DNA of 64,000 nt from a virus: the IMG/VR virus record IMGVR_UViG_3300049845_000008, positions 9,811 through 73,810 of that record; one strand, 5' to 3'. This document shows positions 9,433 to 37,297 of this stretch, one piece after another. Each line of letters opens with the position of its first letter. The stretch's first letter is position 1. The position numbers were made by a program, and so were the translations under genes. The notes below the pieces were generated by a model that saw only the letters and a program-made list of their open reading frames with translations, ran no database searches and had not been told where the DNA came from.

Positions 9433-10353
9433 TTACTTGAATCTCTTGATGCGTTGCAGTGCTTGATTGAATTCGTTTGGATTGGCTTCAAGCGACTGTC
9501 CGAGCGGAACGCCAGACTGCGAAAGCGACTGCACAGCCTGTGCCTTCTGTGCGCCTAGCTTGCGCATGAGCATGTAGCCGGGAGCCTTTGGATTCTTGGC
9601 TGCGAGCTTGGAGAAGTCACGATGCCCTGCGGCTGCTTGCGTAGGGTTGATACCCTTGATTCGAAGCGTCTGCATCGCACGGCGAATGTTCGTCATGACA
9701 TTACGGTTGAGTGTAGCATTCGAAGGAGCAACGGCACTCTTCGAACCGCCCGACAGAACTTCGTCTAGCTGCGTGTCTTCGTTGACTCCTGCTGCTGCCA
9801 TGAACTTCGCACGATCAAATCGTGGGTTCTGCTGCTTGAACAGGGATGCATGGTGATTAGCCATTTCCTTGCGCTTTTCAGGATGTTCGATGCTCTTGAT
9901 CAGGTCTGCGGTCTGCTGAAAGTGCTTGCGAGTAGGACCGCCTTCTTCAAGGGTTTCTTCCTTGACAGCTTTTCTCTTGACAGCACTGCGAGCGTCCTTG
10001 ACGAACTTTGCGCCACGGTCAACATACTCCGCGCCTACACCACCGGGAACGCCACCCATGTTCTTGAAATACTTGCGTGCAGCCCCTTTGAGTTCCTGAC
10101 GATGCACGGAAACCTTATGTCCTAGTCCACCCTCATAGTCTTTGCCGATTGCGGAAACGTGACGAGTCCACCGACGCTGCGCGTCCATGCCCTGCCCTTC
10201 CTGTAGATCGTCCATGATGGTCGAAGCGAGTTCTACCTTGCGGACTTCCAGATGATCAGCCAAACGGTCTTGAATCATGGATTCAAAAGCGGAATTTGCT
10301 GCATCCTTGTTGTCTGCTGCAAGAGCGTTGATCAGGTGATTTGCTGTGGTCAT
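9433..10353 (-). CDS. gp67: gp67-like prohead core protein with long C-terminal extension
   Basis: N-terminal AF.SMIQDRL...LEVRKVELASTI gp67-type helix; follows the portal gene; several L-x-E sites. Confidence 0.6.
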   Translation of the reverse strand: MTTANHLINALAADNKDAANSAFESMIQDRLADHLEVRKVELASTIMDDLQEGQGMDAQRRWTRHVSAIGKDYEGGLGHKVSVHRQELKGAARKYFKNMGGVPGGVGAEYVDRGAKFVKDARSAVKRKAVKEETLEEGGPTRKHFQQTADLIKSIEHPEKRKEMANHHASLFKQQNPRFDRAKFMAAAGVNEDTQLDEVLSGGSKSAVAPSNATLNRNVMTNIRRAMQTLRIKGINPTQAAAGHRDFSKLAAKNPKAPGYMLMRKLGAQKAQAVQSLSQSGVPLGQSLEANPNEFNQALQRIKRFK

Positions 10354-19227: not shown

Positions 19228-19234
19228 TATTTAG
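19228..19234 (-). promoter_or_regulatory. Late promoter CTAAATA (gp13-gp17)
   Basis: Overlaps the stop of the upstream ORF. Confidence 0.7.
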
Positions 19235-19884
19235 GCAAACTTGATGCCCCTACTCTCAAGGAATCGGTAGTCTTCCTCAAGGTAGTCCCGAATCTCAGCC
19301 TCTTCGTGCGGGGCGAGCGCATCCCGATCCGGCAGGGTGATGGAATCGTTGATTTTGGGAATCGGCATGGGATTATCCACCCCGAGTTGAGTCAGAATCT
19401 TCGAAACCTCGTTTTGGTAGTCTTCGAAGTTCAACGGAATGACGGGACCGGAGAGCCATGGCTTGTGGGTTTTGCCATAGGGACCGCGCTCCATATGCAT
19501 CTTAAGCTTGCGAAACACTTCGATCATGGGAATACAGTCACACATTTGCCTCATTTCGTGCTTCTCCCATTCCCAATAGTTCTCCTGAGAGGTATAGGAT
19601 GCAGGTAAATAGCTACCATAGAATGCACGAAAGAACTTGGCGTGGTGTCGTCCGCGCCGCAGATAGTTCATGATGGAGATACACCGGTCAAGCGGATTCC
19701 GATAGAATGCGTAACATGTGTACTCATTCAAATTAGGGTATTCTTTCATTTCCTCGTATCTGGTATGAGCCTCGTCACACACGGCTAGTGGAATACCCAA
19801 ACCGGCAACCGCCGTTCGAAGTGCCTTGCTTCCGGTCCTAGGTGTGAAGAAAACCATGACCTTTCTTTCAGTGGAAAGTATCAT
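19231..19884 (-). CDS. Sulfotransferase-like protein (Sulfotransfer_2 type), paralogue 1
   Basis: 5'-PSB loop TPRTGSKAL, 3'-PB FYRNPLDRCIS, C-terminal EIRDYLEEDYRF. Confidence 0.8.
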   Translation of the reverse strand: MILSTERKVMVFFTPRTGSKALRTAVAGLGIPLAVCDEAHTRYEEMKEYPNLNEYTCYAFYRNPLDRCISIMNYLRRGRHHAKFFRAFYGSYLPASYTSQENYWEWEKHEMRQMCDCIPMIEVFRKLKMHMERGPYGKTHKPWLSGPVIPLNFEDYQNEVSKILTQLGVDNPMPIPKINDSITLPDRDALAPHEEAEIRDYLEEDYRFLESRGIKFA

Positions 19885-20180
19885 TGCCCATCTTTCAACT
19901 TGCGTTCTTCGTCTGTCAGAGGAATGGTTTCCATCAGATCAGCCGCGATTTCATACTTGTTGCCCTTGTAGCCGTGGCGAATGGATTCCCACAGGTACGA
20001 GAGGTAGAACTTGAACCAACCCTCTTCTTCGACCTGATAGATATGTTCTAGCTCATGGCGGAATAGGCGATCCGTGACTTCCTCTCGCGTGCGCTTGAAG
20101 AAGATGAATGGGTAGATGGTGATGCCGCCGATCCACGTTTTGCGGAGCGGAAGAAAGTGATAGACGATTCTGATTTTCAT
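19881..20180 (-). CDS. Small zincin-like metallopeptidase (HEXXH)
   Basis: GITIYPFIF...RHELEHIYQ...Y.GNKYEIAA (HExxH plus downstream Glu). Confidence 0.7.
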   Translation of the reverse strand: MKIRIVYHFLPLRKTWIGGITIYPFIFFKRTREEVTDRLFRHELEHIYQVEEEGWFKFYLSYLWESIRHGYKGNKYEIAADLMETIPLTDEERKLKDGQ

Positions 20181-20184
20181 TTTG

Positions 20185-20742
20185 TTATACCTTGAAGGTG
20201 ATGCCTCTTGATTCGAAAAACTCGTAGTCCTGCTTGTAGAATTCCTTTATGTACGTCACTTCTTCGGGAGTCAGGTCATTGACCGTTCTCCTGTTGTCAC
20301 TGGCATTCAGCCTAGGAATGTGAATGTTGTCTGGTATGCCAACGATGCGCAACACCTTTCTCATTTCGTTTTCGAAGTCGGCGTAGTCTAGCAGGTTGAC
20401 CTTCACCTCCTCCGGATTGAGCCACCGCACCTGCGGCACAAAGTAACCATACTTAGAAACATACTCCATGACGTTGCTGACTGGAACCATGTGTGAATAC
20501 TTCCTGTAGTTGAATGCCATGAAGGACAGAAACTTCTCCACCGGTTCCCGATAGAACGCATAGACCTGATATTCATCAACATTTGGAATATCGAGTTGTT
20601 TGATGCTAGGGTGATTGGTCTGATTCTCTGTATAGATCTTATCGATTTTACCATGATCCAGTAGAATCTGTCGCAATGTATGCGTACCCGTCTTGTGTGG
20701 GTAGAGGATAATGACTTTCTTTTTGGTGTCTACGTATGCCAT
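20185..20742 (-). CDS. Sulfotransferase-like protein, paralogue 2
   Basis: PHKTGTHTL, FYREPVEKFLS, PQVRWL, IKEFYKQDYEFF. Confidence 0.8.
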   Translation of the reverse strand: MAYVDTKKKVIILYPHKTGTHTLRQILLDHGKIDKIYTENQTNHPSIKQLDIPNVDEYQVYAFYREPVEKFLSFMAFNYRKYSHMVPVSNVMEYVSKYGYFVPQVRWLNPEEVKVNLLDYADFENEMRKVLRIVGIPDNIHIPRLNASDNRRTVNDLTPEEVTYIKEFYKQDYEFFESRGITFKV

Positions 20743-21182
20743 TATTTTTCTGCCGTAGCTGACATGGTATGAGTACCAGTTGCAATAAGAACACTGTTTG
20801 AGGTGTACCGAATTTCGACAGTGAGTGTTGCATCAAGAGTACCTGCGTTCTGTTGGTCGATTGAATAGCTTCTATCAGTTGCCATACCGATCCATGTGTT
20901 GTTTGCCCACCCTGCTGAGAATGTTGGAACTGTCGTTCCAGAAGTAAACGTGGCTCTCAACTGATAATCAGCCGAAGCACCCGCCAATCTCCACGCATAG
21001 GAAGAGGCTCCCGTGGTACCAAATACTTGACATGTTCCGTTTGCCCAATGCCAAATAGAAGCATTGGACGAATCTAAACCAGAATCAGCCACAGTCTTGT
21101 TCTGAACCTGCGCGTCAAGCACAGGCGGTGCAGCCGCCGCTTGCGCGTTGCCATAGGATAGGAGAATGTTGCGAATGCTCAT
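20742..21182 (-). CDS. Small beta-rich putative virion/fibre-tip protein
   Basis: Thr/Ser/Gly/Trp-rich; shares a YQ.RA...NTW...L.IR domain with 22171..23004 and 36074..37297. Confidence 0.55.
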   Translation of the reverse strand: MSIRNILLSYGNAQAAAAPPVLDAQVQNKTVADSGLDSSNASIWHWANGTCQVFGTTGASSYAWRLAGASADYQLRATFTSGTTVPTFSAGWANNTWIGMATDRSYSIDQQNAGTLDATLTVEIRYTSNSVLIATGTHTMSATAEK

Positions 21183-21850
21183 GGGAAGGTTATTCCCTTG
21201 GATGTGAAGAAGTCATAGTCATCCTGATAGAACGCACGAATCTCAGCCGCGTCTTCTGGTGAGAGAATATCGATATCGGGACGCTTCGGTTGTTCGTTCT
21301 CGTTGGGAAGAACCCTGTCAGGATTTGCTCCGAACGCAGTCAGTAGTCTTCTCATTTCCGCGTCGTGATCGTGGAAGTTAAGAAGGATTAGATTGATGGA
21401 CGGCTGATTTAGCCAGTTCACTTGCTTCGACCACGCCGCCAATCGCCCACTGTTGATTCGATCCTGCATTGCTCGCCAGACCTGAATCGGAGTGATGGTG
21501 TCGTTTGCAGCCTGCAATTCAGGAGAAAGATCCTCATAGAACTTTCGATTGAGGCATGAAATTCTTGCGCCGTTTCCCAAGACTCTGTGCATGATTTCAG
21601 CACACCACCGACGCTTCATGAACATCAGCATGGAGAGCGCACGATCTAATGGTTCCCGATAGAACGCATAGAAGGTGAACGCACCCAACTGTGATTGCAT
21701 CTGAGGAAACTGAACGAGCATTCCGTCCAGATTGATGTGATCGTGTGAGACATGCGTAAGCGATGCATCCCTGAACACTTCGTAGAGGGAATGTGTGGCT
21801 GTCTTTGGCGGCATGAATACCGCTAGTTTTCGGGTGTTATCAATGATCAT
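21179..21850 (-). CDS. Sulfotransferase-like protein, paralogue 3
   Basis: PPKTATHSL, FYREPLDRALS, KQVNWL, EIRAFYQDDYDFF. Confidence 0.8.
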   Translation of the reverse strand: MIIDNTRKLAVFMPPKTATHSLYEVFRDASLTHVSHDHINLDGMLVQFPQMQSQLGAFTFYAFYREPLDRALSMLMFMKRRWCAEIMHRVLGNGARISCLNRKFYEDLSPELQAANDTITPIQVWRAMQDRINSGRLAAWSKQVNWLNQPSINLILLNFHDHDAEMRRLLTAFGANPDRVLPNENEQPKRPDIDILSPEDAAEIRAFYQDDYDFFTSKGITFP

Positions 21851-22161
21851 TCTGTGTACGTCCCGTTGTAGATGCTCAGAATAACATCCACGTTATGATC
21901 CTGCATGGCAAGCACATCTGAGTTATTCTCAACCCAACTATCCAACACCAGATCCCGAACGTCGGCGGATGGAATGAAAGTCTGTGGTGTGGGAGGAGGA
22001 AGATCAACCCAATGTGCGCTGCGATACATCTGCCCTGTTTCCAGATCAGTTGTGAGAAGGAACACTCGCAGTCTGGTGTAGACAGTATCGTTGAAGGTTG
22101 CGTCGAAATAGGATTCAGCGTCTTCTAATGGTATGTAGACCTTATGCTTATACGATGCCAT
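21847..22161 (-). CDS. Hypothetical protein (possibly fibre-associated)
   Basis: 104-aa ORF with stop overlapping the next start; acidic; VDLPPPTPQTFIP...SWV. Confidence 0.55.
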   Translation of the reverse strand: MASYKHKVYIPLEDAESYFDATFNDTVYTRLRVFLLTTDLETGQMYRSAHWVDLPPPTPQTFIPSADVRDLVLDSWVENNSDVLAMQDHNVDVILSIYNGTYTE

Positions 22162-22170
22162 GATGTAATC

Positions 22171-23004
22171 TCACTTAAAGTTGTGGCTCAATACGCCTTC
22201 CATGAAGTATGTATGCGCGTCTTCGACTTCGAAGCTTACCACTTCACCGGCACCTACGTAGTCGATTGCGGTGATGGTACTCTTTCCGAGTCTCATGCCG
22301 ACGTTCAGCTTACAGGCGCGTATCAGAGTGTCACCGTCTTCCAGATAGAAACGATGCAAGTCCGAACAGATAATTTCCTTGCCATCATCGAATCTGATGC
22401 GAAACTTGATGGCTTGCTGTATCTTGATGTTGGTGATTGGATAGGAACCCAATTCTTTTGTCGTTTCGTGAACCGCAAGCACTTTCATTCCGACCTTTAG
22501 TTCACCCGCACGGATAGTGGATCCATTCGCAAGCGTGATGCGCATACTTGGATCCGGACAACCCAAATACTCATACTCTGCCGAACATTCACAATAGACG
22601 TTGGATATTAGTTTTAGAGAATTCTTTTCTCGCAATTGCAACCAAAACCGTATGTTGACTGCGGTAGTGGTTGTATAGATTCCCCACCACGGATCTGCAC
22701 CACAATCAATCCACGTATTTGCGGATGAACCCACAAGAGTTCCTCCCGATTGAGAGAAAAATCTTGCGTTGGCTTGATAGTTGTTTGCGCCGCCACCCTG
22801 CAACCAAATCATCTTCGGAAGTGTAGTGGTGAGTGTATTGGCTGTATAGAACGTGCCATTGCCCGTGATTGTATGTCCTCCACTATTCCATATCTTAATG
22901 TCAGCCTGAGTTCTCGGTCCCGGTGTCACAGCACCCGAATTATAGTTTCGCGATATGAAAGTCCCGAATCTAGACCACTGTTGCGTGCCACGCGCCACCG
23001 TCAT
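22171..23004 (-). CDS. Putative virion protein with C-terminal Hint (intein-like) autoprocessing domain
   Basis: G|[22 protein letters not shown] (block A), CSDLH (block B), [23 protein letters not shown] (blocks F/G). Confidence 0.85.
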
Positions 23005-26000
23005 GTGATATCTCCTGAAACAATCGCTTCACCCGTGGTGGTGTAGAAGATGGAGGCTACGGAATACCTTGCGGCAAGGTTCGATGTGATGTATCCTGCG
23101 GAGTTCAACTTCGCTACGCCCGTCGTGTTGGCAATGGTGACGTTGCCTGTGTTGGTTCTGATGATGGTGATACCGAAGCCTGCGTTGGTTGCAGCCGCGA
23201 GCGTGATCGTCATGGCTGTTGTCGAGTTGCAGAGCAGAACCTTACCTGCATGGTTATCGCTAACCGTTCGTGACGATGTTACCTGAATCATCGGCATGTC
23301 CGAGACATTGCTCGTCATTCTCACATTGCCGCTGAACAATACGTCCGAAGAAACCGTCGTGCCGAAGGACGTACCCTGAGTACCCTGTCTTCCCTGTACA
23401 CCCTGAATACCCTGCGCACCGGTAGCACCTTGCGATCCACCACCGCCACCGGTAGACTCAATGCTTCCTAGGAGATAGATGGCATTGGTTGCGGCGTAGA
23501 CGATGGTGACGGCTGAGTTCTGCGAAGCGATGTTCGAAGTGGTGAACGTCGTGCTGTTCGACTTGAGCGCAAGGTTAGCAATCGTGACATTGCCTGTTCC
23601 CTTACGAACCACCGTGACTGCAAAGCCAGAAGTAGACGAGTTAGCGAACGTGATCGTCGTCGCGGATCCGGAGTTGACTTCGACAATCTTACCTGCGGCA
23701 TTCTCAGCATAGTGCGTAGAAACGGCTGTAGTAATGATGGGTGTGTCAAACACCTGATCAGTGAACACCACGTTTGCGTTGAACGTAACGTCCGTGGCAA
23801 CTGTCGTGCCGAACGAAGTACCCTGAATACCTTGAAGCCCTGTTGCGCCCTGAGAGCCAGTACCGGTAGCACCTTGAGTGCCTGTACCTGTCGTTCCCTG
23901 CCGACCTTGAAGCCCCTGAATGCCTTGCAATCCGGTGGTGCCTTGTGCACCCGTAGCACCTTGAGTTCCTGTTCCGGTTGTGCCTTGCGATCCAGTTGCG
24001 CCTTGAGTACCGGTCAGTCCTTGTAGACCGGTCGTGCCTTGTGATCCACTTCCAGTGAGTCCTTGAAGACCCGTTGCACCTTGCGTGCCTGTTCCTGTGG
24101 TACCTTGAGTTCCAGTCAGTCCTTGTAGACCAGTGGTTCCCTGTGCGCCTGTTGCGCCTTGTGTTCCTGTGCCAGTTGCACCTTGCGTGCCGGTGCCAGT
24201 GGTTCCTTGCAGACCCGTAAGCCCTTGCAGACCAGTGGTTCCCTGCCGTCCTTGAATACCTTGCAATCCGGTCGTACCCTGAGAACCTGTAGTTCCCTGA
24301 ATGCCAGTTGTACCTTGAGAACCCGTAGTTCCCTGAATGCCAGTTGTACCTTGTGCGCCGTTCGTCCCTTGCAGTCCAGTCGTACCCTGCGCACCCTTCC
24401 GCGCAACAGCAAGCTTGATCTTGAAGTTGCTAGAGAATGAGGTTGTCGTTCCGTTGTTGATGAGTGAAAGCCCGAATTCATAGTAGCCCGTCTTATTGGT
24501 TTTAGACGTAACAGTATACGAGAAGAACTTGGACGCATCACCCGGATCTTGTAGAAGAAAAATGTCGCCTACATTCGTGTAGTTGAGGAACAAGCTTACG
24601 TCAACAGCACTATCGTTGAGAATGTCGATCCACATCAACGTTGCGAGTGTGAGGTTTGCGTTGTTCAGCTTCAACTTGCCCGAACCCGGATCAGAGTCCG
24701 TGGTGCCGGTGTCGAATCGATAGTCCGTTGCTAGCGCAGAAACACCTTCGTTGCCAGTGATGCCCTGAGTTCCTTGCGAACCTGTGGTTCCCTGCAATCC
24801 AGTCAAACCCTGTAGCCCTGTGGTTCCTTGTGAACCTGTGGTGCCTTGCGATCCAGTCAAACCCTGTAGTCCAGTCGTACCCTGCGAACCCGTCGTTCCT
24901 TGGCGACCTTGAATACCTTGCAGACCAGTAAAACCTTGAAGTCCCGTCGTGCCTTGTGCGCCTGTGGTTCCCTGTGCGCCAGTCGAACCTTGAATGCCTG
25001 TAGCACCCTGAGTTCCAGTCGCGCCTTGAGAACCTGTAATGCCCTGTAGTCCCGTTGCGCCCTGAGTTCCTGCACCGGTCGCACCTTGAGTACCGGTTCC
25101 AGTGAGTCCCTGTAGACCAGTCGTTCCCTGTGAACCCGTCGTTCCCTGTGAACCCGTTGTGCCTTGAAGACCCGTTAGTCCTTGCAGCCCTGTGGTGCCT
25201 TGTGCACCCGTGGTGCCTTGTGAACCGGTCGAACCCTGAATGCCTGTGAGTCCCTGTAGTCCGGTTGTTCCCTGTGCGCCAGTGGTGCCTTGTGATCCGG
25301 TGGACCCTTGAATGCCAGTTGCACCTTGAGTACCTGTCGTACCCTGAATCGATGTACCCTGAACACCCTGAATACCTTGTGCGCCTGTTGCACCGGCTGC
25401 GCCGCCGAGATTAACATCCCAATTGGTAAACGTGCCAGAGCCACCCGTGGTTGCAATGGATGCCACCATGGTTCCGTTTGCGACGTAGTAGGAACTGACG
25501 GACCCTTCCATCTTGTTGACAGCCGTGTTTGCGATAACAACAGACTGTCCTGTGGAGTATGCAAGTCCGGTTGCAATGGTAAGTTGCTTAGTTCCGGTGC
25601 CAATTGTCAATGAGGTTGTAGACGTTGTGGCATACTTGTCACCGGCATTGCCCGTCGTGCCTTGAACACCCTGAATTCCCTGTGCACCGATTGTTCCTTG
25701 TGCACCGGTGAATCCCTGAATGCCAGTAGCCCCTTGTGAGCCAGTCGTACCTTGAACACCCTGAATGCCTTGTGCGCCGGTCGTACCCTGAGTTCCGGTA
25801 AGTCCTTGAAGTCCGGTCGTTCCCTGCCGTCCTTGAATACCTTGCAAACCAGTGATGCCCTGTGCACCGGTCGAACCTTGTGTGCCTGTGAATCCTTGAA
25901 TTCCTGTTGCGCCTTGAGAACCAGTCGTGCCTTGTGCGCCAGTGGTTCCCTGAGAACCTGTCGAACCCTGTAGACCAGTGGTTCCCTGCCGACCTTGAAT

Positions 26001-26654
26001 GCCTTGGCTTCCGGTCGCACCTTGGCTTCCGGTCGCACCTTGGCTTCCGGTCGCGCCTTGCAACCCTGTCGTTCCCTGTGCACCCGTCGAACCCTGAATG
26101 CCCGTAGCGCCTTGAGTTCCGGTTGCGCCTTGTGCACCAGTAATACCCTGATTAGAGATACCCTGAATACCTTGAATGCCGGTGAAGCCTTGAATGCCAG
26201 TGGCACCCTGAACACCCGCGCCGGTCAGACCTTGTGTGCCTTGCAGTCCGGTCGATCCCTGAGTACCTGTCGCGCCCTGAGAACCTGTGATGCCTTGAAT
26301 GCCCTGTGCGCCGGTTGATCCCTGAGTTCCAAGTGCGCCTTGCGTACCGGTGGCACCCTGAGTGCCTGTTGTTCCTTGCGGTCCTGCGACGGTACCGGCA
26401 ATGATCATGGAAACGTTGGCGTTGCCGGTCGGTCCCTGCGTCACGGATACGAGAATGTCGCTTGTGTTTACAAAGTTGATTCCGTTGGCATTGATGGTGG
26501 ATGCAGAGTTGGCTGAGACAAGAACTTCGGAGATTCCTCCACCACCGCCGAGTCCACCGCCTGCTTTCCAAGAATAGCCATCCCACTCCCAAGATGTACC
26601 ATCATTGGAAGTGAAGATCGTACCGATGATGGGATTGGAAGGAAAGTCTGCCAT
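23001..26654 (-). CDS. Collagen-like fibre protein 1 (GxQGxT repeats interrupted by globular domains)
   Basis: Hundreds of Gly-X-Y triplets; N-terminal FPSNP..G....WEWDG..W; tandem duplicated C-terminal domain. Confidence 0.85.
26002..26055. repeat. Three tandem 18-bp units (ccttggcttccggtcgca) within the collagen gene
   Basis: Near-identical DNA copies of one hexapeptide unit. Confidence 0.8.
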
Positions 26655-36073: not shown

Positions 36074-37297
36074 TTACGTACCACCTTCGACGGTCGCGGT
36101 TGCCACTATGTAGCAATTGACATTGGCTACAGTAACGTTATCACTGCGTCTGCGGAACTCCAACCAACCCGTCGCAGTAGAATCTGCTTGTCCTAATCCA
36201 GTCTTTTTCGCATAGCAACCCCAAGACAAATCGTTTGAGACTTGATGCCATGTGTTTGCGGTATTGCCAAGAAGTGTGGTGTTGCCCGTGGCTGCAATTC
36301 TGGTAAATCGAACATCAAAGTTCGATGTAATCGTGGAGTCTGACGAAGAAAACAATCTTTTCAGCCATGTCTGATAATATCCAGAAGACCCATTGGCTGT
36401 GGCGTACACGAATGAACTAGCCTCGGCTGAACCCGGATCAAATCCCATCGCATCAGCAAAATATTCAAATGCAGTCTTTCCCGTAGGGTAGGTATTTCCT
36501 TTGAATCCCATCTCATCGGCACCCAAGAAATCTCTTATCTTGATGGTTCCGGAGGCTGGAATGAATCCATTATACCCCACGGCTGTTGGACTGGTCACAT
36601 AGCTGCCACCGCGTAGAAATGCTCTCAGATTATTAGCGGTCGAGTTGGTATACCACGTTAGCCTAACCTGCCCGGCTGCGCCGTCGCCACCCGTAGTGAT
36701 GGTGGAGTTAGCAGGACCGCCACCACCACCGGGCGCGGTGCCGTCGAGAGTCGGCGCACCACCTGCGCCGCCACTGGATCCTGCACCTCCGGATGACACG
36801 TTACCGTTCGCACCGGCTGTGTTGACAACATTCAGTTCCATGTATGAGTGTATGGTTGAATTAACACCTCCCGCCAAACCAGAATCCGTTTTTCCACCGC
36901 TGCCACCGTCTGCGGTCAGTGTGGCGCTACCATAACCCGGAACACTGTTGGCAGAAGAAAATCCACCAGAGGAACCATTGGCACTAGAAGCACCACCTGC
37001 GCCACCCGTACCGACTTTATATCCGATTGAGGTTGTGCCGGGAATAACAGGCACAGTGACACTGAGATAAGCACCACCGCCGCCACCATACTCTGAAAAG
37101 ATAGCATTGTAGCCGCGACCACCGCCACCGCCACCCCACAATTCGATCTTACACCAGACAGCATCCGAAGGAGCGGTCGAATATCCAGTAGCCCCGGAAG
37201 TGGTGTATGTGTCCGTGCGCGAGACACCACCATAGGTGTACGCATCCCTGATATCAGAGAGGAAGATCGTCCCCGAATTAGCAATACCGCGACCCAT
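36074..37297 (-). CDS. Glycine-rich fibre tip/adhesin-like protein
   Basis: SGTIFLSDI N-terminus, WGGGGGG/GGGGGAY poly-Gly loops; follows the chaperone-bearing fibre. Confidence 0.7.
   Translation of the reverse strand: MGRGIANSGTIFLSDIRDAYTYGGVSRTDTYTTSGATGYSTAPSDAVWCKIELWGGGGGGRGYNAIFSEYGGGGGAYLSVTVPVIPGTTSIGYKVGTGGAGGASSANGSSGGFSSANSVPGYGSATLTADGGSGGKTDSGLAGGVNSTIHSYMELNVVNTAGANGNVSSGGAGSSGGAGGAPTLDGTAPGGGGGPANSTITTGGDGAAGQVRLTWYTNSTANNLRAFLRGGSYVTSPTAVGYNGFIPASGTIKIRDFLGADEMGFKGNTYPTGKTAFEYFADAMGFDPGSAEASSFVYATANGSSGYYQTWLKRLFSSSDSTITSNFDVRFTRIAATGNTTLLGNTANTWHQVSNDLSWGCYAKKTGLGQADSTATGWLEFRRRSDNVTVANVNCYIVATATVEGGT

Follow-up and report, generated by a model that had tools for sequence, protein, structure and literature searches.

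Why would a viral protein end in a Hint domain that has only two residues behind it? Hint domains are known from inteins, from Hedgehog processors, from the bacterial intein-like domains (BILs) of secreted bacterial proteins and from pretoxin modules. The question is raised by P0001, a protein of 277 amino acids (aa) composed of an N-terminal domain and a C-terminal Hint domain. Its gene was found by open reading frame (ORF) translation at 22171..23004 of a 64,000-nucleotide stretch of viral DNA, positions 9,811 to 73,810 of IMG/VR record IMGVR_UViG_3300049845_000008. This whole stretch is called the window here, and all features of the window given below lie on its minus strand. From the sequences of P0001 and its relatives we favor, with a probability of roughly 55%, a reading in which the Hint domain would remove itself at the Gly148-Cys149 bond through a thioester and so serve as a disposable C-terminal cap.

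The original prediction, made from the letters of the window, had described residues 149-275 exactly. The N-domain (residues 1-148, 22561..23004) ends in EYEYLG, and Gly148 is followed by Cys149 (22558..22560), which is position 1 of the Hint domain and marks the predicted site of thioester formation and cleavage. A Gly at -1 with a Cys at position 1 is the classic thioester-forming pair. The domain extends from C149 to N275 (22180..22560) and, as its 127 aa are too few to hold an endonuclease, it is a mini-Hint lacking any endonuclease insert. Block B reads S214-D-L-H217 (22354..22365) and block G is His274-Asn275 (22180..22185). Only a two-residue tail and the stop codon follow (22171..22179, with Phe276-Lys277 at 22174..22179 and TGA at 22171..22173), such that the protein ends in SHNFK. 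The start of the gene was assigned from a Shine-Dalgarno sequence read directly in the DNA, AGGAGA (23011..23016), 6 nucleotides 5' of the ATG at 23004, and this ATG overlaps the stop codon of the upstream fiber gene as ATGA. A public gene call for the same gene, P0002, begins at M65 and gives 213 aa; the Shine-Dalgarno sequence, the ATGA overlap and the lengths of the orthologs all favor the 277-aa start over M65.

Library models gave matches of P0001 to the Hint clan that lay below their cut-offs. In Pfam these were PT-HINT (1.5e-4), Intein_splicing (2e-3) and Hint (6e-3), with the PT-HINT model (PF07591) scoring 22.5 bits against a gathering cut-off of 27.7, and the NCBIfam intein models were at or below threshold. 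When the single sequence was searched against the PDB using phmmer, the gp41-1 mini-intein was matched at 2.6e-5, its SEEH pairing with SDLH and its HN end with that of P0001, and in tblastn residues 149-275 aligned end to end with true terminase inteins. The profile search against the Hint and PT-HINT families that the original prediction had proposed gave far stronger matches once a Hint-only family profile was compared with the PDB: the UmbC PT-HINT domain (8W20) was matched at 4e-12, the A-type BIL of Clostridium thermocellum (2LWY) at 4.4e-12, the Tetrahymena BIL2 at 1.5e-11 and the gp41-1 intein at 5.5e-11. In an AlphaFold2 (AF2) model built from three sequences the Hint domain had a predicted local distance difference test score (pLDDT) of about 70-85, and the top Foldseek matches of the model were Tetrahymena BIL2, the Ssp DnaB intein, the gp41-1 intein and the C. 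thermocellum BIL (E 3.6e-9 to 2e-6), with target TM-scores of 0.74-0.82, E 3.6e-9 to 1e-7 and a probability of 1.0 for BIL2, DnaB and gp41-1. These matches are well past chance, and the C-terminal domain of P0001 is confirmed as an intact Hint fold.

As the +1 residue is Phe, trans-esterification and canonical class 1-3 splicing are not available to P0001. The claim that the protein cannot splice normally is therefore upheld: neither P0001 nor either of its orthologs has Cys, Ser or Thr at this position. A canonical class 1 intein was ruled out for want of a +1 nucleophile and of a continuing extein, the C-terminal His-Asn of that class being present. The two orthologs, P0003 (283 aa, 51% identity) and P0004 (292 aa, 44% identity), were the only full-length relatives returned by a search of 5.8 billion proteins. 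Both consist of an N-domain plus a Hint domain, and they end in SHNFK and SHNLKP, respectively, so that the +1 residue of P0003 is Phe, as in P0001, whereas P0004 has a Leu there. Identities of the two orthologs to P0001 were 25% and 19% over residues 1-64, 56% and 51% over residues 65-148, and 64% and 48% over the Hint domain. The Hint domain is at least as conserved as the N-domain core, indicating that it is under purifying selection, and Cys1, the block B His and the terminal His-Asn do not vary among the three orthologs or among 34 independently retrieved terminal-Hint proteins. A full-length alignment search of viral contigs found no related locus, and the same search of metagenome contigs found one Hint-only locus.

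These orthologs also bear on the possibility that P0001 contains a decaying true intein that has lost its C-extein. Downstream of the gene is a 104-aa ORF (21847..22161) in the Hint-gene frame, separated from it by the TGA and three codons (HNFK-stop-DYI-M), and this ORF could be a former C-extein reached by TGA read-through or cut off by a recent nonsense mutation. The nearest single-sequence PDB match of P0001 is moreover a true phage mini-intein. Both orthologs, however, stop 2-3 residues past His-Asn, and thus the truncation is ancestral rather than a recent nonsense mutation. The +1 nucleophile that P0001 lacks is missing almost throughout the family, and identical or near-identical DNA occurs in freshwater metagenomes of at least two studies, with the Hint gene including its stop codon unchanged in the second. 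The 104-aa ORF itself had no family match, and nothing related to it turned up in the C-flanks of other family Hints. It was rejected as a lost C-extein on the latter ground and is probably a separate gene; one RNA-library contig covers this ORF only. Decay of an intein is thus largely refuted and hardly credible as an explanation.

The absence of a +1 nucleophile is the property by which BILs are defined (PMC4031507). Type-A BILs keep His-Asn and can splice by aminolysis, mostly giving cleavage in experiments, whereas type-B BILs lack block G (PMC4031507). By this published definition the P0001 Hint is a type-A-like BIL, given its His-Asn and the missing +1 nucleophile. Type B was ruled out by the intact block G (LSHN). 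By the family profile the scores for BIL, PT-HINT and intein are nearly equal (4e-12 to 5.5e-11), so that membership of P0001 in any one of these clades would be a close call. The type-A BIL of C. thermocellum (2LWY) resembles P0001 in being a mini-Hint with Cys1, a block B His, His-Asn, no +1 nucleophile and no endonuclease, and type-A BILs likewise belong to variable proteins of the surface type and do not occupy the conserved sites of essential enzymes. Described BILs, however, lie inside their proteins, flanked by domains on both sides, whereas P0001 has only two residues past its Hint, and the P0001 family differs from BILs in having a signature of its own (C-P-x-P, AHTY..G..SHN and a Lys at +1 or +2) and in residing in phage tail proteins. 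The gp41-1 intein (6QAZ) has about the same length (~127 aa) and the same block B and block G, but it is a canonical class 1 intein of the split kind, has a +1 nucleophile and occupies a conserved site in a helicase, whereas the P0001 Hint is followed by a +1 Phe and ends its protein.

The family to which the Hint domain belongs proved to be a very large environmental one. A HMMER search of 1.84 billion representatives with a three-sequence profile returned 1401 proteins at E<=1e-3, of which 413 also passed E<=1e-10, nearly all of the 1401 through the Hint domain alone; P0001 itself matched the family hidden Markov model (HMM) at 8e-50. The family signature opens with C-P-[DAST]-P and closes with AHTY..G..SHN, which is followed by (x)-K. 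A second sample was taken from IMG/VR with a degenerate DNA pattern, which gave at least 120 loci, and 123 of 123 pattern-bearing ORFs were confirmed by the family HMM. Pooled domain counts combine the profile-search proteins with the pattern-retrieved Hints among the matches listed. Note that AHTY, G and SHN are invariant by construction in the pattern-retrieved set and are not evidence there; the profile-search sets are independent of the pattern. Cys occupies Hint position 1 in 221 of 222 pooled domains and 159 of 160 domains end in His-Asn. Only 8 of 264 pooled domains have Cys, Ser or Thr at +1, and a Lys is found at +1 or +2 in 249 of the 264. The Hint lies 15 or fewer residues from the protein end in 74 of the 264 (~28%). 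Seven of 10 terminal-Hint viral proteins were tail fiber, central tail fiber J or tail proteins in a PHROGs scan, and 13 of 34 terminal-Hint relatives matched PT-HINT at E<=1e-3.

Conservation of this kind can be set against the proposal that the Hint is retained in the virion, either as a folded distal knob of the protein or as a non-catalytic folding or assembly module in which the catalytic residues are kept for structural reasons. The Hint is a compact, stable beta fold, and the Asp of block F:4 is not conserved, this position being Ser, Asp, His or Lys, both of which would suit such a role. A structural role hardly accounts for the fact that Cys1, the block B His and His-Asn stay invariant across more than 250 divergent domains, and the Hint-less paralogs described below show that the module to which the Hint is attached needs no Hint. 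We consider a retained, inert Hint improbable.

A Lys is near-universal in the family tails. Terminal Hints mostly end in HN-x-K (57 of 74) whereas internal ones mostly have HN-K (142 of 190). A possible use of this residue is a splice of the type-A BIL kind, in which the Gly148 thioester would be attacked either by the alpha-amine of Phe276, freed by cyclization of Asn275, or by the epsilon-amine of Lys277. The x-Lys tail would then replace the +1 Cys of inteins as the acceptor, and the products would be a 16.6-kDa N-domain-Phe-Lys, linear or isopeptide-branched, plus free Hint. Type-A BILs do splice by aminolysis although they have no +1 nucleophile (Dassa 2004 and Aranko 2013, cited after PMC4031507). 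Terminal members, too, keep His-Asn invariant, and the prevalence of Lys at +1 or +2, including the HN-x-K ends of the terminal members, also speaks for such a splice. Against this, cleavage outweighs splicing in the BILs that have been tested (PMC4031507), the two added residues bring no evident benefit and the Lys could equally be structural or catalytic. Such a splice seems unlikely. We are similarly doubtful of the more general proposal that the Lys is the acyl acceptor of the Gly148 thioester, whether in its own tail, a neighboring fiber subunit or a partner, and that an isopeptide-linked fiber tip, branched or cross-linked, results. The conserved Lys could point to new chemistry; were it the acyl acceptor, the splicing-like reaction would be new, and so would this means of covalently stapling phage fibers.

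The N-domain provides a different kind of evidence, since the window contains copies of it that have no Hint. Its core (residues 65-148) is beta-rich, and residues 1-64 are poorly conserved. In a second AF2 model residues 72-143 form a beta-meander or sandwich (pLDDT 63-80), and the core may be a small immunoglobulin (Ig)-like beta-sandwich, a proposal we hold with low to moderate confidence. Structure searches with the N-domain gave generic Ig-like sandwiches (best PDB Z 6.3), and the matches in BFVD were uncharacterized phage proteins of 134-147 aa. No Pfam, PHROG or NCBIfam match and no ESM-Atlas lead was obtained for the N-domain, and a word-based search among longer proteins found no further relative. 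A module motif, Y-Q...G-T...N-T-W...W-L/V-x-x-R, is present in three copies in the tail region of the window. One of these is the copy with the Hint in P0001 (22561-22812). The second is a 146-aa stand-alone ORF (20742..21182), a Hint-less paralog of the N-domain core that ends about three residues before the position aligned with G148. The third comprises the C-terminal ~105 aa (36074..36400, E 1e-6) of a 407-aa tail protein (ORF 36074..37297) and ends within about two residues of the aligned junction. As both Hint-less copies end within about three residues of the aligned G148-C149 bond, a cut at this bond would leave a native-like module.

These copies and the gene context also bear on the suggestion that the N-domain is a putative fiber-tip domain. 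The tail context supports a tail role for the N-domain, as does the repeated placing of the module at the ends of proteins, which extends to longer proteins elsewhere that end in N-module plus terminal Hint (P0046, 872 aa, and P0075, 451 aa), and it is from these points that the N-domain is taken as a putative fiber-tip module. A recognized receptor-binding fold or family is another matter: no Pfam or PHROG match was obtained and the folds retrieved were generic Ig-like ones.

The original prediction had allowed two fates for the N-domain, release or ligation to another virion protein, a sugar amine or a lipid. In the ligation reading activated Gly148 would be passed to an amine or hydroxyl of a partner (the 1217-aa fiber encoded upstream, a neighboring subunit, an amine of a glycan or a molecule on the host surface) and the tip module would be fixed covalently. 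The translational coupling of the Hint gene to the long fiber gene is consistent with this, and the transfer of the Hedgehog N-domain to cholesterol provides a precedent. Moreover, Chiarini et al. are said to have found in 2021 that the Tetrahymena BUBL BIL2 mediates conjugation to lysines. However, nothing past the P0001 Hint could act as a recognition region, an equivalent of the Hedgehog sterol-recognition region being absent, in P0046 and P0075 the N-module and its Hint already form part of a long protein, so that fiber joining is not its general role, and the Hint-less paralogs function with a free end. We regard ligation as unlikely.

Release of the N-domain is the fate that we favor. 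The residues for an N-S acyl shift (Cys1 and S-x-x-H) and for Asn cyclization (His-Asn) are intact and under selection. Release is the most economical outcome, and the Hint-less paralogs, which in the alignments end at the aligned position, support this part of the original prediction. We infer the cleavage itself, what becomes of the acyl group and what the cap is for as follows. P0001 would be made as a precursor of about 30.7 kDa in which the beta-sandwich module (residues 1-148) is capped by the type-A-BIL-like Hint. After folding, Cys149 aided by the block B His217 would catalyze an N-S acyl shift at the Gly148-Cys149 bond, and the resulting thioester would be resolved by water or a cytoplasmic thiol. 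This would give a 16.3-kDa module having a C-terminus like those of the Hint-less paralogs, and the 14-kDa Hint would be discarded. Cyclization of Asn275, either independent of these steps or coupled to them, would result in loss of the Phe-Lys dipeptide.

Several observations weigh against this reading. Asn275 and the Lys at +1 or +2 are strictly kept, even in proteins having tails of only 2-12 residues, which is unexpected if N-terminal cleavage were the sole reaction, and this strict retention hints at extra chemistry. The variability of block F:4 noted above is a further point of this kind. Finally, the fold of the N-domain and its fiber-tip role are tentative, given that the modeled pLDDT of 63-80 applies to the core only and that the best structural match had a Z of 6.3.

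The original prediction had likened P0001 to both Hedgehog and BIL domains. The BIL part of this comparison stands, the architecture being closer to BILs than to canonical inteins, whereas the Hedgehog part is weak. Hedgehog (1AT0) also has a C-terminal Hint that frees an N-domain through a Gly-Cys thioester, but its Hint is followed by the sterol-recognition region and has no terminal Asn, whereas P0001 lacks such a region and keeps the Asn; the Foldseek match was also clearly weaker, with a TM-score of 0.60 (E 1e-4). The best structural match was the Tetrahymena thermophila BUBL BIL2 (6TMM/6Y75; Foldseek E 3.6e-9, target TM-score 0.74-0.78), another Hint that processes its flanks without canonical splicing. 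BIL2 differs in being eukaryotic and flanked by ubiquitin-like domains, the identity is only 22-23% and its conjugation role has no demonstrated counterpart in P0001. PT-HINT (PF07591, Streptomyces UmbC 8W20) provided both the best Pfam model and the best profile-PDB match, and its Hint is used for release rather than splicing. PT-HINT domains precede the C-terminal toxin that they release, whereas nothing follows the Hint of P0001, and thus the released part must be the N-terminal one. Peptidase_S74 domains are self-cleaving C-terminal intramolecular chaperone ends of phage fibers and tailspikes that act through a Ser-Lys dyad. Their likeness to the proposed Hint cap is one of role only, the fold and chemistry being unrelated, and Peptidase_S74 had no match to P0001 in the Pfam scan.

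If the reading of a self-removing cap is correct, phage tail proteins would have a very abundant Hint family dedicated to capping them, and the thioester-based maturation of receptor-binding fibers would join the roles known for Hint domains as a new one. Such domains would also be compact (~127 aa) C-terminal self-cleaving tags that need no nucleophile and might be useful for making protein thioesters. P0001 is a clean minimal test case, having 277 aa, two domains, a two-residue tail and, as natural controls, Hint-less paralogs in the same genome.

The window comes from an uncultured freshwater phage, on an IMG/VR contig of 73.8 kb that has an estimated completeness of 41% and carries a T4-like myovirus gene set. 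The Hint gene closes a tail-fiber block that contains several collagen-like fibers; immediately upstream and translationally coupled to it is the gene of the 1217-aa collagen-like tail fiber (23001..26654), and sulfotransferase-like and neck genes are found downstream. Past the Hint gene are three paralogous sulfotransferase-like ORFs plus a 99-aa HExxH ORF, all reading in its direction and separated by very little DNA (19231-21850), and only the 185-aa sulfotransferase-like ORF passed the Pfam threshold for Sulfotransfer_2. The original prediction had tied the Hint to these sulfotransferases as a second covalent-modification activity of the same operon. The gene neighborhood is as described, and there is nothing beyond the neighborhood behind a functional link.

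Relatives of the Hint in deposited genomes were sought from both phages and cells. A megablast search of deposited phages with the P0001 region gave no match, and tblastn with P0001 against the same phages gave true terminase inteins only, the one of a Desulfovibrio phage having a +1 Cys and lying inside TerL. The best deposited-phage match to the Hint was a canonical mini-intein of ~125 aa (SHN followed by C) in the TerL of Nitratidesulfovibrio phage SRB7757 (L124 5326-7401, plus strand of an unannotated record). Two other family Hints used as queries against deposited phages retrieved one uncultured fecal phage record and nothing else. The family thus appears to be essentially absent from deposited phage genomes. 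A literature search limited to bioRxiv and open-access papers found terminal Hints on phage fibers nowhere described. In cellular genomes (596 Gb) the DNA pattern was found at only 47 places, of which 31 were confirmed, nearly all of them terminal, and the confirmed carriers were Sphingomonas and its relatives, myxobacteria and assorted metagenome-assembled genomes. In cultured bacteria, terminal family Hints end ORFs of 400-1100 aa (L136, L140, L151, L158, L159, L163, L130 and L146). The cultured carriers include Sphingomonas melonis, S. asaccharolytica NBRC 15499, Stakelama pacifica DSM 25059, Myxococcus sp. Y35, Corallococcus carmarthensis, Pyxidicoccus and Anaeromyxobacter sp. PSR-1, in which the genes concerned may be tail genes of prophages, and are possible experimental handles.

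Several variations on the family architecture were also seen. Tandem Hints of 2-4 copies are present in many members (P0005-P0013; L047, L042 and L082) and are joined by short basic or proline-rich linkers (SHNK-RRRP...C-P-D-P). One of the four Hint copies of L047 lacks His-Asn (LLSRTVK). A subgroup (P0008, P0012, P0090, P0096, P0103, P0116, P0129 and P0136) has a Lys/Glu-rich insert of about 35 aa (HEKDL) located about 35 residues into each Hint, and because the insert splits the domain HMMER reports two half-domains. A conserved ORF of ~557 aa found in about 15 viral loci (e.g., L018, L049, L063 and L088) contains an internal family Hint (C-V-S/A-T-D-T ... SHNKGAA) that has a large insertion and is followed by about 220 residues. 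Finally, many short tails have an Asp-Pro a few residues past HN-x-K (VKQADPE and IKVLDPD are examples; P0051, P0100, P0137, P0064, L110, L022, L159 and L136). This Asp-Pro, which is absent from P0001, may be a second small motif.

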